From an uncultured Oscillospiraceae bacterium (lineage in GTDB: Bacteria; Bacillota; Clostridia; Oscillospirales; Acutalibacteraceae): a DNA stretch of 64,000 nt. The notes below the pieces were generated by a model, which was not told where the DNA came from, searched no databases, and worked only from the letters and a program-made list of their open reading frames with translations. Shown piece after piece: positions 56,211 to 64,000 of the stretch (the first letter of the stretch is position 1; every line of letters starts with the position of its first letter). Location of the stretch: assembly GCA_905192745.1 (NCBI GenBank), contig CAJJLZ010000005.1, positions 6,038 through 70,037 of the forward strand, given 5' to 3'. A program made the position numbers and the translations under genes.

Positions 56211-57164
56211 ATGACTTCCAGCAACAACCGGAAGGTAGTGCTGATCGGCACCGGCATGGTGGGGATGAGCTACGCTTACGCGCTGCTGAACCAGAACGCC
56301 TGCGACGAGCTTGTTCTGATCGACCTGGACAGGGAGCGGGCCAGGGGAGAGGCGATGGATCTGAACCACGGGCTGGCCTTTTCCGCCTCCAGCATGAAAA
56401 TCTACGCCGGGGAATACACCGACTGCGCGAACGCGGATATCGTGGTCATCTGCGCCGGGGTCGCGCAGAAACCGGGGGAATCCCGGCTGGATCTTTTGCA
56501 GCGAAACGCCGCGGTTTTCCGTTCCATTATCGGTCCGGTAACCGAATCCGGCTTTAACGGCATCTTTCTGGTAGCCACCAATCCGGTGGATATCATGACC
56601 CGGATTACCTGTACGCTGTCCGGCTTCAACCCCCGTCGGGTGCTGGGCAGCGGCACCGCGCTGGACACCGCCCGGCTGCGGTACCTGCTCGGGGAGTATT
56701 TCTCGGTCGATCCCCGCAATATGCACGCCTATGTGATTGGGGAGCATGGGGACAGCGAATTCGTCCCCTGGTCTCAGGCAATGATGGCGACCAAGCCGAT
56801 TCTCACCCTGTGTGAGGAGGCCGGGAATTGCCAGTATGCCGACCTGGAAAATATCGCCGCCGAGGTGCGGGGCGCGGCGCAGCAGATCATCAAGGCCAAG
56901 CGGGCCACCTATTACGGGATCGGTATGGCTCTGGTGAGGATCACCAAAGCCATTTTCGGCAATGAAAACAGCGTGCTCACTGTTTCCGCCATGCTGCGGG
57001 GGGAATATGGGGAAAACGGCGTGTATGTCGGCGTTCCCTGTGTCGTCAACCGCAACGGGGTGCGAAAGGTGCTCACTCTTTCCCTGAACGAAGACGAAAA
57101 CCAACGCTTCCGAGCTTCCTGCCGGACGCTGCAGGAATCCTACGCGGAGCTTTCTCTGGAATAA
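56211..57164 (+). CDS. ldh: L-lactate dehydrogenase
   Basis: KVVLIGTGMVGMSYAYAL Rossmann motif and an LDH catalytic block (GEHGDSEF). The ATG lies at 56211. Confidence 0.9.
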   Translation: MTSSNNRKVVLIGTGMVGMSYAYALLNQNACDELVLIDLDRERARGEAMDLNHGLAFSASSMKIYAGEYTDCANADIVVICAGVAQKPGESRLDLLQRNAAVFRSIIGPVTESGFNGIFLVATNPVDIMTRITCTLSGFNPRRVLGSGTALDTARLRYLLGEYFSVDPRNMHAYVIGEHGDSEFVPWSQAMMATKPILTLCEEAGNCQYADLENIAAEVRGAAQQIIKAKRATYYGIGMALVRITKAIFGNENSVLTVSAMLRGEYGENGVYVGVPCVVNRNGVRKVLTLSLNEDENQRFRASCRTLQESYAELSLE

Positions 57165-57985
57165 CGGACCTTCAAATCCTGCCCGGTAGAAACCAACCCA
57201 TCCGCATTAATAAACCGCATGGTCATGGGATCATAATACCGGCTCAGGAGATAATACAGTCCACTCTCGGCATCATACTCATACCCACGGTAGCGGAAGG
57301 GGTTGAGGGCACCCACGGTCGCGGCCAGACTGCCGGTGACGCTGACCGGACGGCCCCACGAGTCGTAGCTGTACTGCACCACCGACGTGCCGGTTTTGTC
57401 AATCAGCCCCACCACGTCGCCCTGCGCGTTGTAGACGTAGTAATACCCCGTACCGTTCAGCAGGAAGCCGACCCGGCGGCCGTCGCCCTCATACATGAAG
57501 AGCAGGATATCATTGCCCTTCTGCATCTTCATGATCTTGCCGTCGGTGTCCCGCCAGTAGGTGGTCGCCGTGCCGTTCACGGTTTTCTTCACCCGCTGGC
57601 CGTCCGCGTCGTACTGGAACGCCATGCTCAGCCCGGTTTTGTTCAGCGTTTTGAGCTGCCGGCAGTCCCACGTCATCGTCATCCCGTCCCGGTAGGCGAG
57701 GGGATTGCCGATCGCGTCGTAGGTGATGCTCTGCCCCTTGTAGGCGGTCAGCAGGTCCTTCCATGTGCTGTCCGTGTAAGAGAAGGTTTCCAGCCCGGTC
57801 ATGCCAGACTCCAGCTCGCCGCTTTCGGAATACGGGTATTCCTGCCGGCTCAGGAGGTTGCCGCCCGCGTCGTAGGCGTAGGTGGTCATCTTGCCCGTGA
57901 TCTGGTTGTTTTCCCAGATCAACTGGTTCAGTCCGTCGTATTTGTACGATATCTTCCGACCGCACTGGTCTGTGATGGTCGCGAT
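57140..57985 (-). pseudogene. Terminal orphan rhs core fragment without toxin domain (copy C)
   Basis: YD-repeat sequence that is near-identical to copies A and B. It has no start codon of its own (the frame opens after a TGA at about 57990). After ...RFINADGLVSTGQ it runs into ldh-flanking sequence and stops at 57140. Confidence 0.75.
57177..57985 (-). repeat. rhs core repeat, copy C
   Basis: Offset 2061 nt from copy B and 4494 nt from copy A. The alternate-frame ORF 57510..57965 shares its C-terminal sequence (about 133 of 135 aa) with 59571..59978 and 62004..62411. Sequence is more diverged at 57920-57985. Confidence 0.9.
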
Positions 57986-58626
57986 GTTCCCGCTGTCGTC
58001 AAAAATTCATCCCAATAAGTATAGAACATACTAAACGCTTTGCTATCTAACGGATAAATAAACAACAAAATATCGGCCCAACTATGGTTTGGCGTGTAAA
58101 TGTGAAATTTGTTTTGAATAAATTTCGTAAAATCTGGAAACAAAGAATTTGTGGGTGCCGTATTTCTGTCTAGAAAATAATTATATCCGCATAAATTGGC
58201 ATACAGTCCTTCCAGTGATTGCGTTCCCAAGAAGAGCTCAGGCTGTTTTCGAATGGTTTCAATTTCCATATACAGTAAAGAGTCTGTTGTCGTATCTGTT
58301 GAAAGCGTATTTTCTTTTTCAGGACAACTCCAATTAGCATATTCCTCAAAGAATTTCTCCAAATGCTTATAAAACTCATAGAAAGCCTGTTCATCCGAGA
58401 TGCAGAAAAAACTAATTATTTTTGCCCAGTGATGGTCGGCATTCATTCGATATTTTTTCTGGATATATTTTTGAAAATCAGATATTATGCAGGACGTATA
58501 ACCTAACTTGTGGAACTGATAGGCAAAAGCGTTATAGAAATAAAACAGTCGATTGAGGGAAGGCTTTCCAATAAGTGCGGACGGATTTTTTTGTACATCT
58601 ATTAGCATTCTATGTATTTGGTCCAT
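57928..58626 (-). CDS. Candidate immunity protein for the orphan toxin (imm2), internally duplicated
   Basis: 232 aa from AT-rich sequence. The AAGGAG RBS overlaps the toxin stop (TTTTAAGGAGCAAAAAACAATG). Two homologous halves of about 95 aa. The last 24 codons read out-of-frame through rhs copy C. Confidence 0.6.
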   Translation of the reverse strand: MDQIHRMLIDVQKNPSALIGKPSLNRLFYFYNAFAYQFHKLGYTSCIISDFQKYIQKKYRMNADHHWAKIISFFCISDEQAFYEFYKHLEKFFEEYANWSCPEKENTLSTDTTTDSLLYMEIETIRKQPELFLGTQSLEGLYANLCGYNYFLDRNTAPTNSLFPDFTKFIQNKFHIYTPNHSWADILLFIYPLDSKAFSMFYTYWDEFLTTAGTSRPSQTSAVGRYRTNTTD

Positions 58627-58639
58627 TGTTTTTTGCTCC

Positions 58640-60695
58640 TTAAAATATTGGTGTAGGTATTACTGTTTTTTCCCCGGTTCCGATAAAGTCGGCAACCCAT
58701 AATGATTCCGGTAGCCCCAGCGGATGAATGTTACAATATACCACTCCATTGAGACGGATGCCAATATGAAATCCGTTTGTACTAATTGCATCTCCACCAC
58801 GAGAAAGGCTTAAAATATACCCCCTTCCGCCGATAAATGTTATGGAAAGATAATCTGCTTTAATTTTGTTCTTACGCAAATATTCAGCCATTTCATTAGC
58901 GGCTTGTACGCATTCATATAATCCAAACTGTCCAGCAATTTGACCTAGCTGTTCCTCTGTTGATAATAGGATACTTTCTGTAATTGCATAGTCTGAAATA
59001 AACTCAGTCATGAAATTTTGAAATTCATTCAAAGCATTATTTAAACTATCTTTTGCGGAGTTTAAGGCATCTGTAGCTTCGCTGACACCAAAAATTGATA
59101 ATACGGTTAATCCACCAAGTACCAATATTTCATCTACAGGTCCTGTGATAACGTCATCAACACCAAACCATTCGCCGGTTTGATCATCGTAATTCACGGG
59201 ATTATTTCCACAATAAGCGAAAAGGTTGGTTCCAACTATACTCGAAGAGTGTATTGAAATGTCCGCATTCACAAACCGCATGGTCATGGGATCATAATAC
59301 CGGCTCAGGAGATAATACAGCCCGGATTCGGCATCATACTCATACCCACGGTAGCGGAAGGGGTTGAGCTGGCCCACGGTCGCGGCCAGACTGCCGGTGA
59401 CGCTGACCGGACGGCCCCACGAGTCGTAGCTGTACTGCACCACCGACGTGCCGGTTTTGTCAATCAGCCCCACCACGTCGCCCTGCGCGTTGTAGACGTA
59501 GTAATACCCCGTACCGTTCAGCAGGAAGCCGACCCGGCGGCCGTCGCCCTCATACATGAAGAGCAGGATATCATTGCCCTTCTGCATCTTCATGATCTTG
59601 CCGTCGGTGTCCCGCCAGTAGGTGGTCGCCGTGCCGTTCACGGTTTTCTTCACCCGCTGGCCGTCCGCGTCGTACTGGAACGCCATGCTCAGCCCGGTTT
59701 TGTTCAGCGTTTTGAGCTGCCGGCAGTCCCACGTCATCGTCATCCCGTCCCGGTAGGCGAGGGGATTGCCGATCGCGTCGTAGGTGATGCTCTGCCCCTT
59801 GTAGGCGGTCAGCAGGTCCTTCCATGTGCTGTCCGTGTAAGAGAAGGTTTCCAGCCCGGTCATGCCAGACTCCAGCTCGCCGCTTTCGGAATACGGGTAT
59901 TCCTGCCGGCTCAGGAGGTTGCCGCCCGCGTCGTAGGCGTAGGTGGTCATCTTGCCCGTGATCTGGTTGTTTTCCCAAACAAGCTGGTTCAGCCCGTCGT
60001 ACCGGTAGGTGATCTTCCGACCGTCCTTGTCCGTGATGGACGTGATATTCCCATTGTCGTCGTAAGCGTAGGTATCGTTCACCAGTGTGCCGGAAATCTG
60101 CGCCTGCGCCGTGTAGTTGTTCACCAGAGTGGTGGTCTGCTGGCCGGTCACCCCGACGAAGGTGCGGTTGAAAACAAGGGCGTACTGCCCGGGCGTGGCG
60201 ACCAGATTGGTGCGGTATTCCCGCCCGAGACTGTCAAAGGTATGGTTGGCTATGGCGCCGACGCCTCCCGCAGCATAGCCGCCGAACATGGTCGAACCGC
60301 TCAGCCGGGAATCCGGGCCGTAGGAATAGGTGTTCTGATAGGTCTGCCCGTCGAAAATGTAGCTTTCGCCGGTGAGGCGGTTCTGGTTGTCGTATTGGTA
60401 CCGCACGGAGGAAACGCTGCCGGAGTCGGGAATGGTGCGCCGCGCCTCCAGCCGTCCGGCGAGGTCGTACTGGTAGTAATGCGACCCGCCGAACGCCTTG
60501 TCGTGGGTGACGGCCAGCGTGCCGTTCGCGTCATACTCGTTCCACAGGATGTAATTGGAGGAATCCTCCGCTTCCATCATCAGCCAGAGCTGCCCGTATT
60601 TGTTGTAGCTGTAATGCCGCGTGTCCCCGTTGCCGTAGGCTGCGAGCTTCAGCTGTCCGCTGTTCGGCCAGTAGGTGTTGCTGATGAGCTGGCGG
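58640..60695 (-). CDS. Orphan rhs C-terminal cassette (copy B core plus distinct toxin tip CT2), no start signals of its own
   Basis: The frame is open from about 60730. Its first ATG is at 60580 with no RBS. The core is identical at protein level to the main gene up to RFVNAD. It then continues NLFAYCGNNPVNYDD and about 190 aa of unique AT-rich sequence containing YECVQAAN and NGFHIGIRLNGVVYCNIHP. Confidence 0.75.
59262..60695 (-). repeat. rhs core repeat, copy B
   Basis: 1434 bp at a constant offset of 2433 nt from copy A. Several alternate-frame ORF translations are identical between the copies, with a few substitutions near 60640-60665. Confidence 0.95.
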
Positions 60696-60705
60696 ACGGC
60701 TGAGG

Positions 60706-60748
60706 GCTGAGGCAGGGCATATTTTCACAGGATATGCCCTGCCTCAGC
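60706..60748. other. Perfect 17-bp hairpin at the imm1 / orphan-cassette boundary
   Basis: GCTGAGGCAGGGCATAT (60706-60722) pairs with ATATGCCCTGCCTCAGC (60732-60748), 10 nt from the end of rhs homology. Confidence 0.7.
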
Positions 60749-60830
60749 GAACATACTTTAATGGGTTATCTTTTTTGCATCCTAATCCTTGATGTGGCTT
60801 TTCCTCAGATAAGAATTTCCTTTCTGATGT

Positions 60831-61025
60831 CTATTTTTCCTTTTTTGGTATTAACTTTGTTAATATAGCAACCAACCAAAAAGCAAAAGATATATAATAT
60901 AACTTTTGAACAACACCATAATCCAATGAAATCACTTTTGTACTGAGTAAGATAAGCAATAGTAAAAATCCCCCAAAATAGGTTGCGCATCCCCATCGAA
61001 CCAATTTTCCGACTTTATACCACAT
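60831..61025 (-). CDS. Candidate immunity protein for the main Rhs toxin (imm1), 64-aa two-TM protein
   Basis: The ATG at 61025 lies 15 nt after the rhs stop, with AAAGGA upstream. Two hydrophobic helices (FGGFLLLLILLS; ISFAFWLVAILTKLI). AT-rich. An overlapping alternative frame (60805..60996) cannot be excluded. Confidence 0.45.
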   Translation of the reverse strand: MWYKVGKLVRWGCATYFGGFLLLLILLSTKVISLDYGVVQKLYYISFAFWLVAILTKLIPKKEK

Positions 61026-61039
61026 ATGAAACTGTCCTT

Positions 61040-64000
61040 TCAACCCAATTGAAATGGGTTATTCGCATAGGGATATTTTCCATATTTGCCATCCCATTCG
61101 GCGTATACATATGGAGTCAACCCATTTCCAGCAGAAGCTCGAGGATCGGTGCAATATGGTTTGTACATGACTATACCATTTCCATGATTAACAGCGCTTT
61201 CTATTGCTTCACACTTAATACGATACTCAGTTTCGTCCTTTAATGCAAAAAGCAAATCACTAATTAACAAACATATTCCACCTCCAGTAGTGCCTTTTAA
61301 TGTATCATATAATCCAATACCTGCTGATATTCCAAGTTCAGCATAAGAGCCTTGTCGTTTATACAAGTCTTTTACATCATTCGGAGGTATAAATGTAATT
61401 TGGTCAGTAACTACAGCAACTCCATAAACTGGACCAGTTATGCATCCCCCGTTAGTCACTCCTCCATCTGGCAGATAATGAAGTTTTTCATTTGGATAAT
61501 ATGTGCAATTTTCGATTCCTCCATCGTATAATTGCATTTCCCAACGTGTCTGACTGCTTAAAGATTCCCACTGCATTCCTGAAGTGTTTCCAACCCAATA
61601 ACGACCAAAAGGATCATAACATGTGATCGGATTGTTTCCGCAATACACAAACATATTGTAGCCAAGGATTCCCTGCCCAGTAGAAACCAACCCATCCGCA
61701 TTCACAAACCGCATGGTCATGGGATCATAATACCGGCTCAGGAGATAATACAGCCCGGATTCGGCATCATACTCATACCCACGGTAGCGGAAGGGGTTGA
61801 GCTGGCCCACGGTCGCGGCCAGACTGCCGGTGACGCTGACCGGACGGCCCCACGAGTCGTAGCTGTACTGCACCACCGACGTGCCGGTTTTGTCAATCAG
61901 CCCCACCACGTCGCCCTGCGCGTTGTAGACGTAGTAATACCCCGTACCGTTCAGCAGGAAGCCGACCCGGCGGCCGTCGCCCTCATACATGAAGAGCAGG
62001 ATATCATTGCCCTTCTGCATCTTCATGATCTTGCCGTCGGTGTCCCGCCAGTAGGTGGTCGCCGTGCCGTTCACGGTTTTCTTCACCCGCTGGCCGTCCG
62101 CGTCGTACTGGAACGCCATGCTCAGCCCGGTTTTGTTCAGCGTTTTGAGCTGCCGGCAGTCCCACGTCATCGTCATCCCGTCCCGGTAGGCGAGGGGATT
62201 GCCGATCGCGTCGTAGGTGATGCTCTGCCCCTTGTAGGCGGTCAGCAGGTCCTTCCATGTGCTGTCCGTGTAAGAGAAGGTTTCCAGCCCGGTCATGCCA
62301 GACTCCAGCTCGCCGCTTTCGGAATACGGGTATTCCTGCCGGCTCAGGAGGTTGCCGCCCGCGTCGTAGGCGTAGGTGGTCATCTTGCCCGTGATCTGGT
62401 TGTTTTCCCAAACAAGCTGGTTCAGCCCGTCGTACCGGTAGGTGATCTTCCGACCGTCCTTGTCCGTGATGGACGTGATATTCCCATTGTCGTCGTAAGC
62501 GTAGGTATCGTTCACCAGTGTGCCGGAAATCTGCGCCTGCGCCGTGTAGTTGTTCACCAGAGTGGTGGTCTGCTGGCCGGTCACCCCGACGAAGGTGCGG
62601 TTGAAAACAAGGGCGTACTGCCCGGGCGTGGCGACCAGATTGGTGCGGTATTCCCGCCCGAGACTGTCAAAGGTATGGTTGGCTATGGCGCCGACGCCTC
62701 CCGCAGCATAGCCGCCGAACATGGTCGAACCGCTCAGCCGGGAATCCGGGCCGTAGGAATAGGTGTTCTGATAGGTCTGCCCGTCGAAAATGTAGCTTTC
62801 GCCGGTGAGGCGGTTCTGGTTGTCGTATTGGTACCGCACGGAGGAAACGCTGCCGGAGTCGGGAATGGTGCGCCGCGCCTCCAGCCGTCCGGCGAGGTCG
62901 TACTGGTAGTAATGCGACCCGCCGAACGCCTTGTCGTGGGTGACGGCCAGCGTGCCGTTCGCGTCATACTCGTTCCACAGGATGTAATTGGAGGAATCCT
63001 CCGCTTCCATCATCAGCCAGAGCTGCCCGTATTTGTTGTAGCTGTAATGCCGCGTGTCCCCGTTGCCGTAGGTCGCAAGCTTCAGCTGCCCGCTGTTCGG
63101 CCAGTAGGTGTTGCTGATGAGCTGGCGGCTGCCGGACCCGTTTACCAGCCTCACCGTCTGCTGGTTCCCCAGCGCGTCGTAGGTGAAGAAGTACTGGAAC
63201 CCGTTATGGGTGATGGCGGAAAGGCGGCTCCGGCTGTCGTAGCCGTAGGTGTTGGAGGCGTTCCCGCTGCTCACCCCCGTCAGCCGGTCCGCGCTGTCAT
63301 AGGTGTAGCTGGTCACGTTCCCCTTCGGGTCGGTTACGCTGTTCACCAGACCGCTCATCCCGTCCACGTCAAAGGTGGTAACCTTCCCGCGCTGGTCATA
63401 GGTTTTGGTCACATAATGCCCCAGCGCGTCGTATTCCTGGCTTGTCTTCAGATAGGGGTTGGAGGTGTTCAGCGTGCCGCTGGTGGTCACCGTCCCCATC
63501 CATGTCTGGGTCACGTTGCCGCTTGCGCCGTCATAGCCAAAACGGAATCCAAGCCCGGTCTGGTTCGACCGCGCCGCCACCAGCCGGTGCTTGTTCGAGG
63601 TGTCGTAGGTATAGCTGTAGCTTTCGCTCAGCGCTTCGTCGGTTACACCGACTAACTCGTTGCTCGATTCATCATAGTCGTAAATCTTTTTGTTCTGCGC
63701 GTTGTCGCTCGCCGAGAGCAGATTGCCGGTCTTATCGTCATAAGCGTAGGCTGTCCCCGTCGCGTCGATGTTCAGGCAGAAGTCGTCGAACCACACCTTG
63801 TTCGCGTTTTTGTAGTAGATGGCGTAGAACGAAACCGAACGGATTTTTTTGTTCCTGTTGGTCTTGGACGGCCCGACCGCCTACGACACGAACTGCGCCC
63901 CCGTCGAGTCCGGGTTGAAGGGGACAACCTTCCACTCGGTTGTACCGTCGGCGAAGTATATCCCCAGATCCAGCGCAAAATACCGCGATGACGCCGTGAT
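61040..64000 (-). CDS. Rhs/YD-repeat polymorphic toxin, C-terminal ~980 codons (partial, runs off window; in-frame TAG at 63881-63883)
   Basis: Dense YD repeats (YxYDxxGN), an RHS core end motif (RYYDPMTMRFVNADGL...NMFVYCGNNPITCYDPFG), then about 190 aa of unique AT-rich C-terminal tip (CT1). The same frame stays open on both sides of the TAG, up to position 64000. Confidence 0.85.
61672..63128 (-). repeat. rhs core repeat, copy A (inside the main gene)
   Basis: This is the master copy matched by copies B and C. Confidence 0.95.

Follow-up and report, generated by a model that had tools for sequence, protein, structure and literature searches.

The locus analyzed here raises the question of whether the C-terminal tip of an Rhs protein and the very small hydrophobic open reading frame (ORF) behind it form a toxin/immunity pair and, if so, where such a toxin would act. 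The two genes lie in a window of 64,000 nucleotides (the whole stretch of DNA that was analyzed, positions 6038-70037 of contig C5, CAJJLZ010000005.1) from the 2.69-Mb, 57% GC genome of an uncultured Oscillospiraceae bacterium, and ORF translation places the rhs core, the tip (CT1), and the small ORF all on the minus strand. Judged from their sequences and those of their relatives, it is highly likely that CT1 and the 64-aa product of the small ORF (P0002) are a real toxin/immunity pair, in which P0002 is very probably the predicted antidote. The pair belongs to a WapA-like polymorphic toxin system of the YD/Rhs kind that is secreted through Sec, in the genome of a gut Clostridia (Oscillospiraceae-type) bacterium. 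The features of Rhs/YD polymorphic toxins that are found here are YD repeats, a DPxG-type boundary, a variable tip behind it that is set off by a break in base composition, a small gene directly downstream that is co-inherited with the tip according to the sequence evidence, and orphan cassettes after the full-length gene.

The minus-strand translations place the boundary, the tip, and the small ORF where the initial annotation, made from the letters of the DNA, had put them. The Rhs/YD core ends at 61604-61671 with the boundary motif YCGNNPITCYDPFG, which has a weak match to TIGR03696 (Rhs_assc_core), and the ORF that carries CT1 matches the Pfam family PF05593 (RHS_repeat) over seven stretches (E 5e-33). 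The 187 residues that are C-terminal to the NNPITCYDPFG boundary (61043-61603) comprise a 39-aa pre-toxin linker module (RYWVGNTSGMQWE...LYDGGIENCTYYPNE, 61487-61603), which matches other proteins separately from the toxin core, and the 148-aa CT1 core itself (KLHYLPDGG...YPYANNPFQLG, 61043-61486), in keeping with family matches that cover query residues ~40-185. A TGA stop codon (61040-61042) and a 14-nt spacer (61026-61039) follow; the spacer contains a Shine-Dalgarno-like AAGGA (61035-61039) 9 nt before the ATG of P0002 at position 61025, and the P0002 codons (60834-61025) end at a stop at 60831-60833. The GC content falls from ~0.60 in the Rhs core to 0.31-0.43 over ~60750-61650, and this drop is the usual mark of an exchanged toxin/immunity cassette and no chance effect.

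By Kyte-Doolittle analysis, P0002 has two hydrophobic spans (residues ~13-29 and ~42-58) and ends that are rich in Lys and Arg, which implies a predicted N-in/C-in hairpin with an outer loop of 12-14 residues. An ORF of this type could be a chance hydrophobic frame, which AT-rich DNA readily gives, or a membrane protein for export or lysis, and a reading of this kind is favored by the presence of an overlapping 63-aa ORF and by the lack of any family match for P0002 (none in Pfam at E up to 1). Against this stands the locus of P0004, a CT1 homologue with 47% identity, where a 74-aa ORF begins 10 nt downstream of the toxin gene behind AAGGTG (L005). This ORF has the same layout of two transmembrane (TM) segments as P0002, is 34% identical to it (E 1e-9), and has in common with it the motifs VRWxC and YY...WLxAIxTKxIPK, so a conserved protein with a ribosome-binding site occupies the same position after diverged toxins. 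The ratio of nonsynonymous to synonymous differences (pN/pS) between diverged copies also argues against a chance ORF, since it is ~0.4 in the P0002 frame and ~0.85 in the other two frames, as does the retention of an intact P0002-type gene beside mere 3' toxin remnants (L009/L010 and L030). On these sequence comparisons, we take P0002 to be a real gene and consider a chance ORF, or an export or lysis protein, very improbable. The overlapping 63-aa frame (60805-60996, minus strand) was rejected as a gene: homologous loci give 51 aa there with no similarity beyond MGM, and the sole substitution in L030 leaves the 64-aa protein as it is and alters the product of the 63-aa frame.

The initial annotation had proposed the 64-aa membrane protein as the partner of CT1, and the finding of a homologous small ORF behind a homologous toxin bears this out. 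The 74-aa ORF was found in 27 blocks of a public sequence collection and stood directly after the toxin gene in 10 of the 10 loci listed. In addition, the exact P0002 protein is called in at least 11 metagenome assemblies, and in at least 8 of these, which are independent metagenomes, the DNA of CT1 and P0002 is 100% identical. An intact small gene beside toxin remnants is, as far as the sequences indicate, the pattern of an orphan immunity gene, and the contigs L033, L030, and L009 look like orphan-immunity islands for the CT1 family. On two of these contigs (L030:86-823 and L009:307-1210), the intact small immunity genes beside short 3' toxin remnants come after unrelated modules, and the third (L033:113-1909) carries tandem variant CT1-like/immunity modules.

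Searches of Pfam, NCBIfam, and PDB sequences returned no match for either CT1 or P0002, apart from the Rhs boundary in NCBIfam; for CT1, the thresholds were E up to 1 against Pfam families and E up to 10 against PDB chains. When 12 members of the CT1 family were compared with Pfam, the matches were scattered chance ones, with no family common to the members. CT1 matched no nuclease, deaminase, ADP-ribosyltransferase, peptidase, or other curated toxin family (Tox-, Ntox) in Pfam or NCBIfam. The view that the tip falls outside the curated families is thus upheld by the Pfam, NCBIfam, and PDB sequence searches, and a confident profile match to an enzymatic toxin, which would have spoken against a membrane-targeting effector, was looked for in these three collections and none was found. 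We conclude that CT1 is a soluble, acidic domain of ~148 aa from an undescribed family, and that CT1 and its small partner are new, unnamed sequence families within a known kind of system, in which a toxin tip is paired with an immunity protein that is small and membrane-embedded.

The family is rare. An exhaustive HMMER search of 1.84 billion representative proteins gave 19 matches to CT1, one of which is a spurious ankyrin-repeat protein. The relatives are nearly all unnamed proteins, and almost all come from gut metagenomes; an Oscillospiraceae metagenome-assembled genome (MAG) contributes one, which NCBI lists as "RHS repeat-associated core domain-containing protein." They are the C-termini of YD proteins, one of which is a full-length protein of 2153 aa with a signal peptide. 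No family member turned up among 400 genomes from the same order, and protein-pattern and DNA-motif scans of 185,579 species-representative genomes found the family in one MAG besides the present genome. Two family loci were present in JGI metagenomes and none in viral contigs.

The 39-aa segment ahead of CT1 is also found alone, with 57-78% identity, in P0013, P0018, and P0019, where it stands ahead of other C-terminal tips. Since it matches separately before other tips, the segment is a linker that can be reused, which leaves a toxin core of ~148 aa. One tip behind a homologous linker is a CHAP domain (peptidoglycan hydrolase, E 6e-8); besides this domain, the linker at 61487-61603 (YWVGNTSGMQWE...LYDGGIENCTYY) elsewhere precedes two Gly-rich unnamed tips. 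Other members of the CT1 family carry different linkers, one of them rich in Cys and His (CPIHGNHFWQPNCxxC).

The partners of more distant CT1 relatives bear on where the toxin would act. In two subfamilies with ~30% identity to CT1, the genes 11-24 nt downstream encode proteins of 114 and 120 aa with four TM segments and short loops. The initial annotation had asked whether CT1 homologues are always followed by a similar two-TM ORF; this is so at the P0004 loci and not in these two remote subfamilies, whose four-TM proteins have no relation to P0002 or to one another that BLASTP, hhalign, or shuffle tests could detect. The idea that the three immunity classes descend from one ancestor, or arose by a 2+2 TM duplication, was considered and is unsupported (best z 2.5, all comparisons non-significant). 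Over the three subfamilies, the partners are either two-TM proteins of 64-74 aa or four-TM proteins of 114-120 aa, and almost all of each protein is within the membrane. Because an antidote that has no soluble domain can meet the toxin or its target only in or at the membrane, we predict that the site of CT1 action is the cytoplasmic membrane or envelope of the target cell, and we regard this as likely.

The neighboring tip CT0, which belongs to the full-length rhs gene described below, contains a hydrophobic segment rich in Gly and Ala (GKFALALGGGIALLTALAKAVGVAALAAIGAAAGVVVGKG) and, behind it, an unnamed domain that ends in ...YYRHFHLDNRHGNPHIWHY and has no Pfam match. CT1 lacks a Gly/Ala-rich membrane-entry segment of the CT0 type, and the linker in front of it is also used by a cell-wall hydrolase; together these suggest that CT1 needs no import into the cytoplasm. 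If it did act there on some other target, the membrane proteins would have to block its uptake. Such a block at the membrane has been proposed for the two-TM proteins Imm-CdiI and Imm17 (Zhang et al. 2012, PMC3482391), and this proposal lends weight to a cytoplasmic target, as does the resemblance of CT1 to an ordinary soluble globular protein and the fact that other Gram-positive YD toxins, for example WapA, carry cytosolic nucleases. However, the missing entry segment and the lack of any nuclease, deaminase, ADP-ribosyltransferase, or other enzyme signature speak against it, and three unrelated classes of membrane protein would all need to block one and the same import route. A cytoplasmic target is, in our assessment, improbable.

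Alignments of the family (A1 and A6) were examined for residues that would indicate how CT1 works. The invariant residues are chiefly Gly, Pro, Tyr, and Trp (LPxGG, NGNG-V, DPR, YxxW, and YPYA); near-invariance extends otherwise to a single Asp, in the predicted hairpin, and a single Arg, that of DPR. The family alignment conserves no constellation of Ser, Cys, or His and no catalytic set, and a lipase reading of the GISAG sequence (GxSxG) was rejected, as its Ser is not conserved. Since the partners are almost wholly intramembrane and no catalytic set is conserved, we infer a non-catalytic action at the membrane, from the outside. In the mechanism that we propose, CT1 would reach the cytoplasmic membrane of the target from outside; a central helical hairpin, which contains the moderately hydrophobic stretch rich in small residues with a GTKxTG-like turn, would engage or insert into the bilayer; this engagement would dissipate the membrane potential; and the immunity protein would bind CT1 within the plane of the membrane. 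Such membrane permeabilization, by hairpin insertion and loss of membrane potential, has by our analysis a chance somewhat short of even, and pore formation is plausible.

Several properties of CT1 weigh against this mechanism. The domain is acidic and soluble (isoelectric point ~5, grand average of hydropathy ~-0.2), unlike Tse5-CT and the glycine-zipper toxins. The initial annotation had drawn attention to a Gly-rich hydrophobic stretch with GxxxG spacing, and this stretch is present in CT1; it falls short of TM grade, and its GxxxG is peculiar to this member. Across the family, the best 19-residue window of the stretch mostly scores 0.9-1.4 in hydropathy (1.3 in CT1 itself), below the usual TM threshold of 1.6, and the stretch contains 2-8 charged residues per 34, including conserved charges. 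Neither a GxxxG motif nor a glycine zipper is conserved across the family: CT1 has a single GxxxG, the first position of which varies among G, A, S, T, and I and the second among G, A, L, C, and V. For these reasons (low hydropathy, charges, and variable GxxxG positions), a glycine zipper or TM hairpin was rejected as a feature of the CT1 family. The structural models are also of little help to the proposed mechanism, as AlphaFold2 runs on alignments of 4 and 7 rows gave unreliable models (predicted local distance difference test scores of 40 and 52), and neither of these poor models had a Foldseek match in the PDB at E below 1. Finally, partner genes have been seen for 3 of ~12 CT1 subfamilies. 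The two low-confidence runs do agree in the order of elements, namely three strands, a helical hairpin, and two strands, with the Gly-rich stretch at the hairpin turn; this order, and no fold, is what we take from them.

The solubility and acidity of the domain would also suit a protein that, as a binder or an enzyme, attacks a membrane-embedded component of the envelope from outside, with the small proteins acting to shield the target and not to bind an inserted toxin. The target could be a lipid II or undecaprenyl-phosphate carrier, a precursor of teichoic acid, or a protein integral to the membrane. The conserved D, R, Y, Y, and W residues would suit a ligand-binding site, the linker is common to CT1 and the CHAP peptidoglycan hydrolase tip, and non-catalytic toxin tips that bind peptidoglycan have been described (Zhang et al. 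2012, PMC3482391). The top PDB profile match, although marginal, is also to a carbohydrate-binding protein, the Sclerotium rolfsii lectin with an actinoporin-like fold; it covers ~40 residues only, and its E-value of 0.07 with alignment A1, which becomes 0.014 with the core-only alignment A6, is not significant. The Pfam model FB_lectin matched none of the family members scanned, and on these sequence comparisons we regard the lectin as a lead and not as a finding. An enzymatic attack is further disfavored by the lack of a conserved catalytic constellation. The known immunity proteins against enzymes that attack the envelope have sizeable extracytoplasmic domains, as TipC does against TelC, whereas all three immunity classes found here have short loops only. 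We consider an attack on an envelope component unlikely, yet less so than a cytoplasmic target. The proposed direct action on the bilayer is in turn doubtful in its most complete form, in which CT1 would found a new fold and family of non-enzymatic, soluble-to-membrane antibacterial toxins of gut Clostridia whose protruding hairpin engages the membrane from outside and is countered by at least three unrelated families of intramembrane antidotes.

Comparison with characterized systems, among which Tse5/Tsi5, EsxX/ExiCD, and, as soluble-to-membrane proteins, the colicins are analogues of the proposed mechanism, indicates how far CT1 and P0002 resemble known membrane-acting pairs. Tse5-CT is an Rhs pore-former of Pseudomonas aeruginosa, and its immunity protein, Tsi5, is a small protein of the inner membrane with two predicted TM segments (PMC9637101, PMC10684867). 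Like that pair, the present one combines an Rhs shell, a tip without predicted enzymatic activity, and a small two-TM protein encoded directly downstream. The two differ in delivery, which for Tse5 is through the type VI secretion system and VgrG in a Gram-negative cell, whereas a Sec signal peptide is used here. They differ also in the tip, as TM and amphipathic helices are predicted for Tse5-CT, which spontaneously partitions into lipid, whereas CT1 is acidic and soluble and has no TM-grade segment. The sequence signs of a Tse5-CT-type toxin were absent, in that CT1 matched no PDB chain and its best hydropathy window is the 1.3 given above.

Among Gram-positive toxins, EsxX is neutralized from outside by ExiCD, polytopic membrane proteins that are also known from orphan immunity genes (PMC12744356). 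EsxX/ExiCD, TspA/TsaI, and TelE, which are membrane-depolarizing toxins of Firmicutes, resemble the present system as Gram-positive antibacterial toxins that act on the membrane from outside and have polytopic membrane immunity proteins (PMC12744356, 10.1101/2022.09.07.506920), but those toxins depend on a glycine zipper and are delivered as LXG proteins by a type VII secretion system, whereas in CT1 the zipper is absent or unconserved and the shell is of the YD type. The (G/A/S)xxxGxxxG pattern in a hydrophobic helix that marks EsxX, TelE, and Tox-WTIP-like toxins was not found as a feature of the CT1 family. The WapA-type systems of Bacillus subtilis and Streptococcus suis (PMC12704120) have in common with this locus a signal peptide, a YD shell, a DPxG-type boundary, a variable tip, a downstream immunity gene, and orphan cassettes. 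The WapA tips that have been characterized are nucleases that act in the cytosol and are countered by soluble immunity proteins, in contrast to the unclassified CT1 tip and its intramembrane partner. Imm17, like P0002, is a two-TM immunity protein in polymorphic toxin loci of Firmicutes (PMC3482391), but its WxW motif and inter-helix Arg are both absent from P0002 and from alignment A4.

Dissipation of the membrane potential and small integral-membrane immunity proteins are features of pore-forming colicins, with Cai/Cei-type immunity, and of CdiA-CT(EC93)/CdiI. The likeness to CT1 and P0002 is that these are soluble or deliverable toxin domains with small membrane immunity proteins. There is no sequence relation, however, and the Pfam colicin and CdiI models do not match; in addition, the pore domains of colicins are all-helical with a long uncharged hairpin, which CT1 lacks. 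As judged by sequence, CT1 and P0002 are placed outside Tse5-CT, the glycine-zipper toxins, Imm17, and the curated enzymatic toxin families.

Polymorphic toxins shape competition among strains in the human gut, and most of the tips found in Gram-positive anaerobes are uncharacterized. The module described here is a compact test case, with a 148-aa toxin and a 64-aa antidote that are present as identical copies in many human-gut metagenomes, with natural orphan-immunity variants, and with three unrelated classes of membrane antidote against one toxin fold. If CT1 proves to be membrane-active, it would represent a new mode of attack on Gram-positive membranes that does without a classical hydrophobic segment, a model for toxin-immunity recognition inside the membrane, and a Gram-positive, Sec/YD-delivered counterpart of the logic of colicins and Tse5. 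If it proves to be an enzyme, it would be one more named toxin family.

The initial annotation had assigned CT1 to the main Rhs protein, and this assignment is wrong. The contig carries a full-length main rhs gene and three partial cores (four core copies in all). The full-length gene lies beyond the end of the window (C5:71080-77325); it has a signal-peptide-like N-terminus and a frame of 2083 codons (1167 codons, a TAG, and 914 codons), and its tip is CT0, which is followed by a 234-aa immunity-like ORF (C5:70457-71158). Behind the immunity-like gene of CT0 comes a 3.3-kb duplicate of the core that carries CT1, the first orphan cassette. CT1 is borne on this duplicate, in an open frame of 946 codons without a signal peptide (61043-63880, minus strand), upstream of which there is an in-frame TAG (63881-63883, minus strand) in a conserved jelly-roll-like domain.

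The same TAG is present in the full-length rhs copy (C5:73822-73824) and in a diverged metagenome strain (L007). When 120 other genera of the host family were sampled, 26 were matched, and 28 of the 29 homologous frames have no internal stop; seven aligned relatives have L, Q, A, G, E, F, or V at the TAG position. Recoding of TAG was rejected, as the genome has no tRNA with a CUA anticodon and TAG ends 237 of 1413 long ORFs. The TAG is probably an inherited nonsense mutation, and this lineage may have lost the use of its rhs weapon. Because the TAG interrupts rhs and there is no suppressor tRNA, the CT1 toxin is probably not deployed in this genome, and the immunity gene may be in use. The module would then be a stored orphan cassette behind a TAG-interrupted main gene, of which probably the immunity gene alone is in use. 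A YD homologue from another genus of the host family (L037, G426:C71) is interrupted in the same domain by a different premature stop of its own, a TAA, a hint that such large toxin genes are inactivated repeatedly.

Exactly where the low-GC CT1/immunity module meets the next rhs cassette stands a perfect inverted repeat (60706-60748) of 17 bp, rich in G and C, with a loop of 9 nt; it occurs once in the genome. It has no T-run, and intrinsic-terminator scoring did not call it; it may be a terminator that lacks this run, or it may mark a recombination junction. The second orphan rhs cassette (58640-60580, minus strand) ends in a Tox-PL-2 papain-fold tip (Pfam E 2.7e-14) and is followed by a 232-aa ORF (57928-58626, minus strand) that has no family match and is presumably the immunity gene of that tip. 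The third core is a stub (57140-57922) that is truncated at a convergent lactate-dehydrogenase-like gene.

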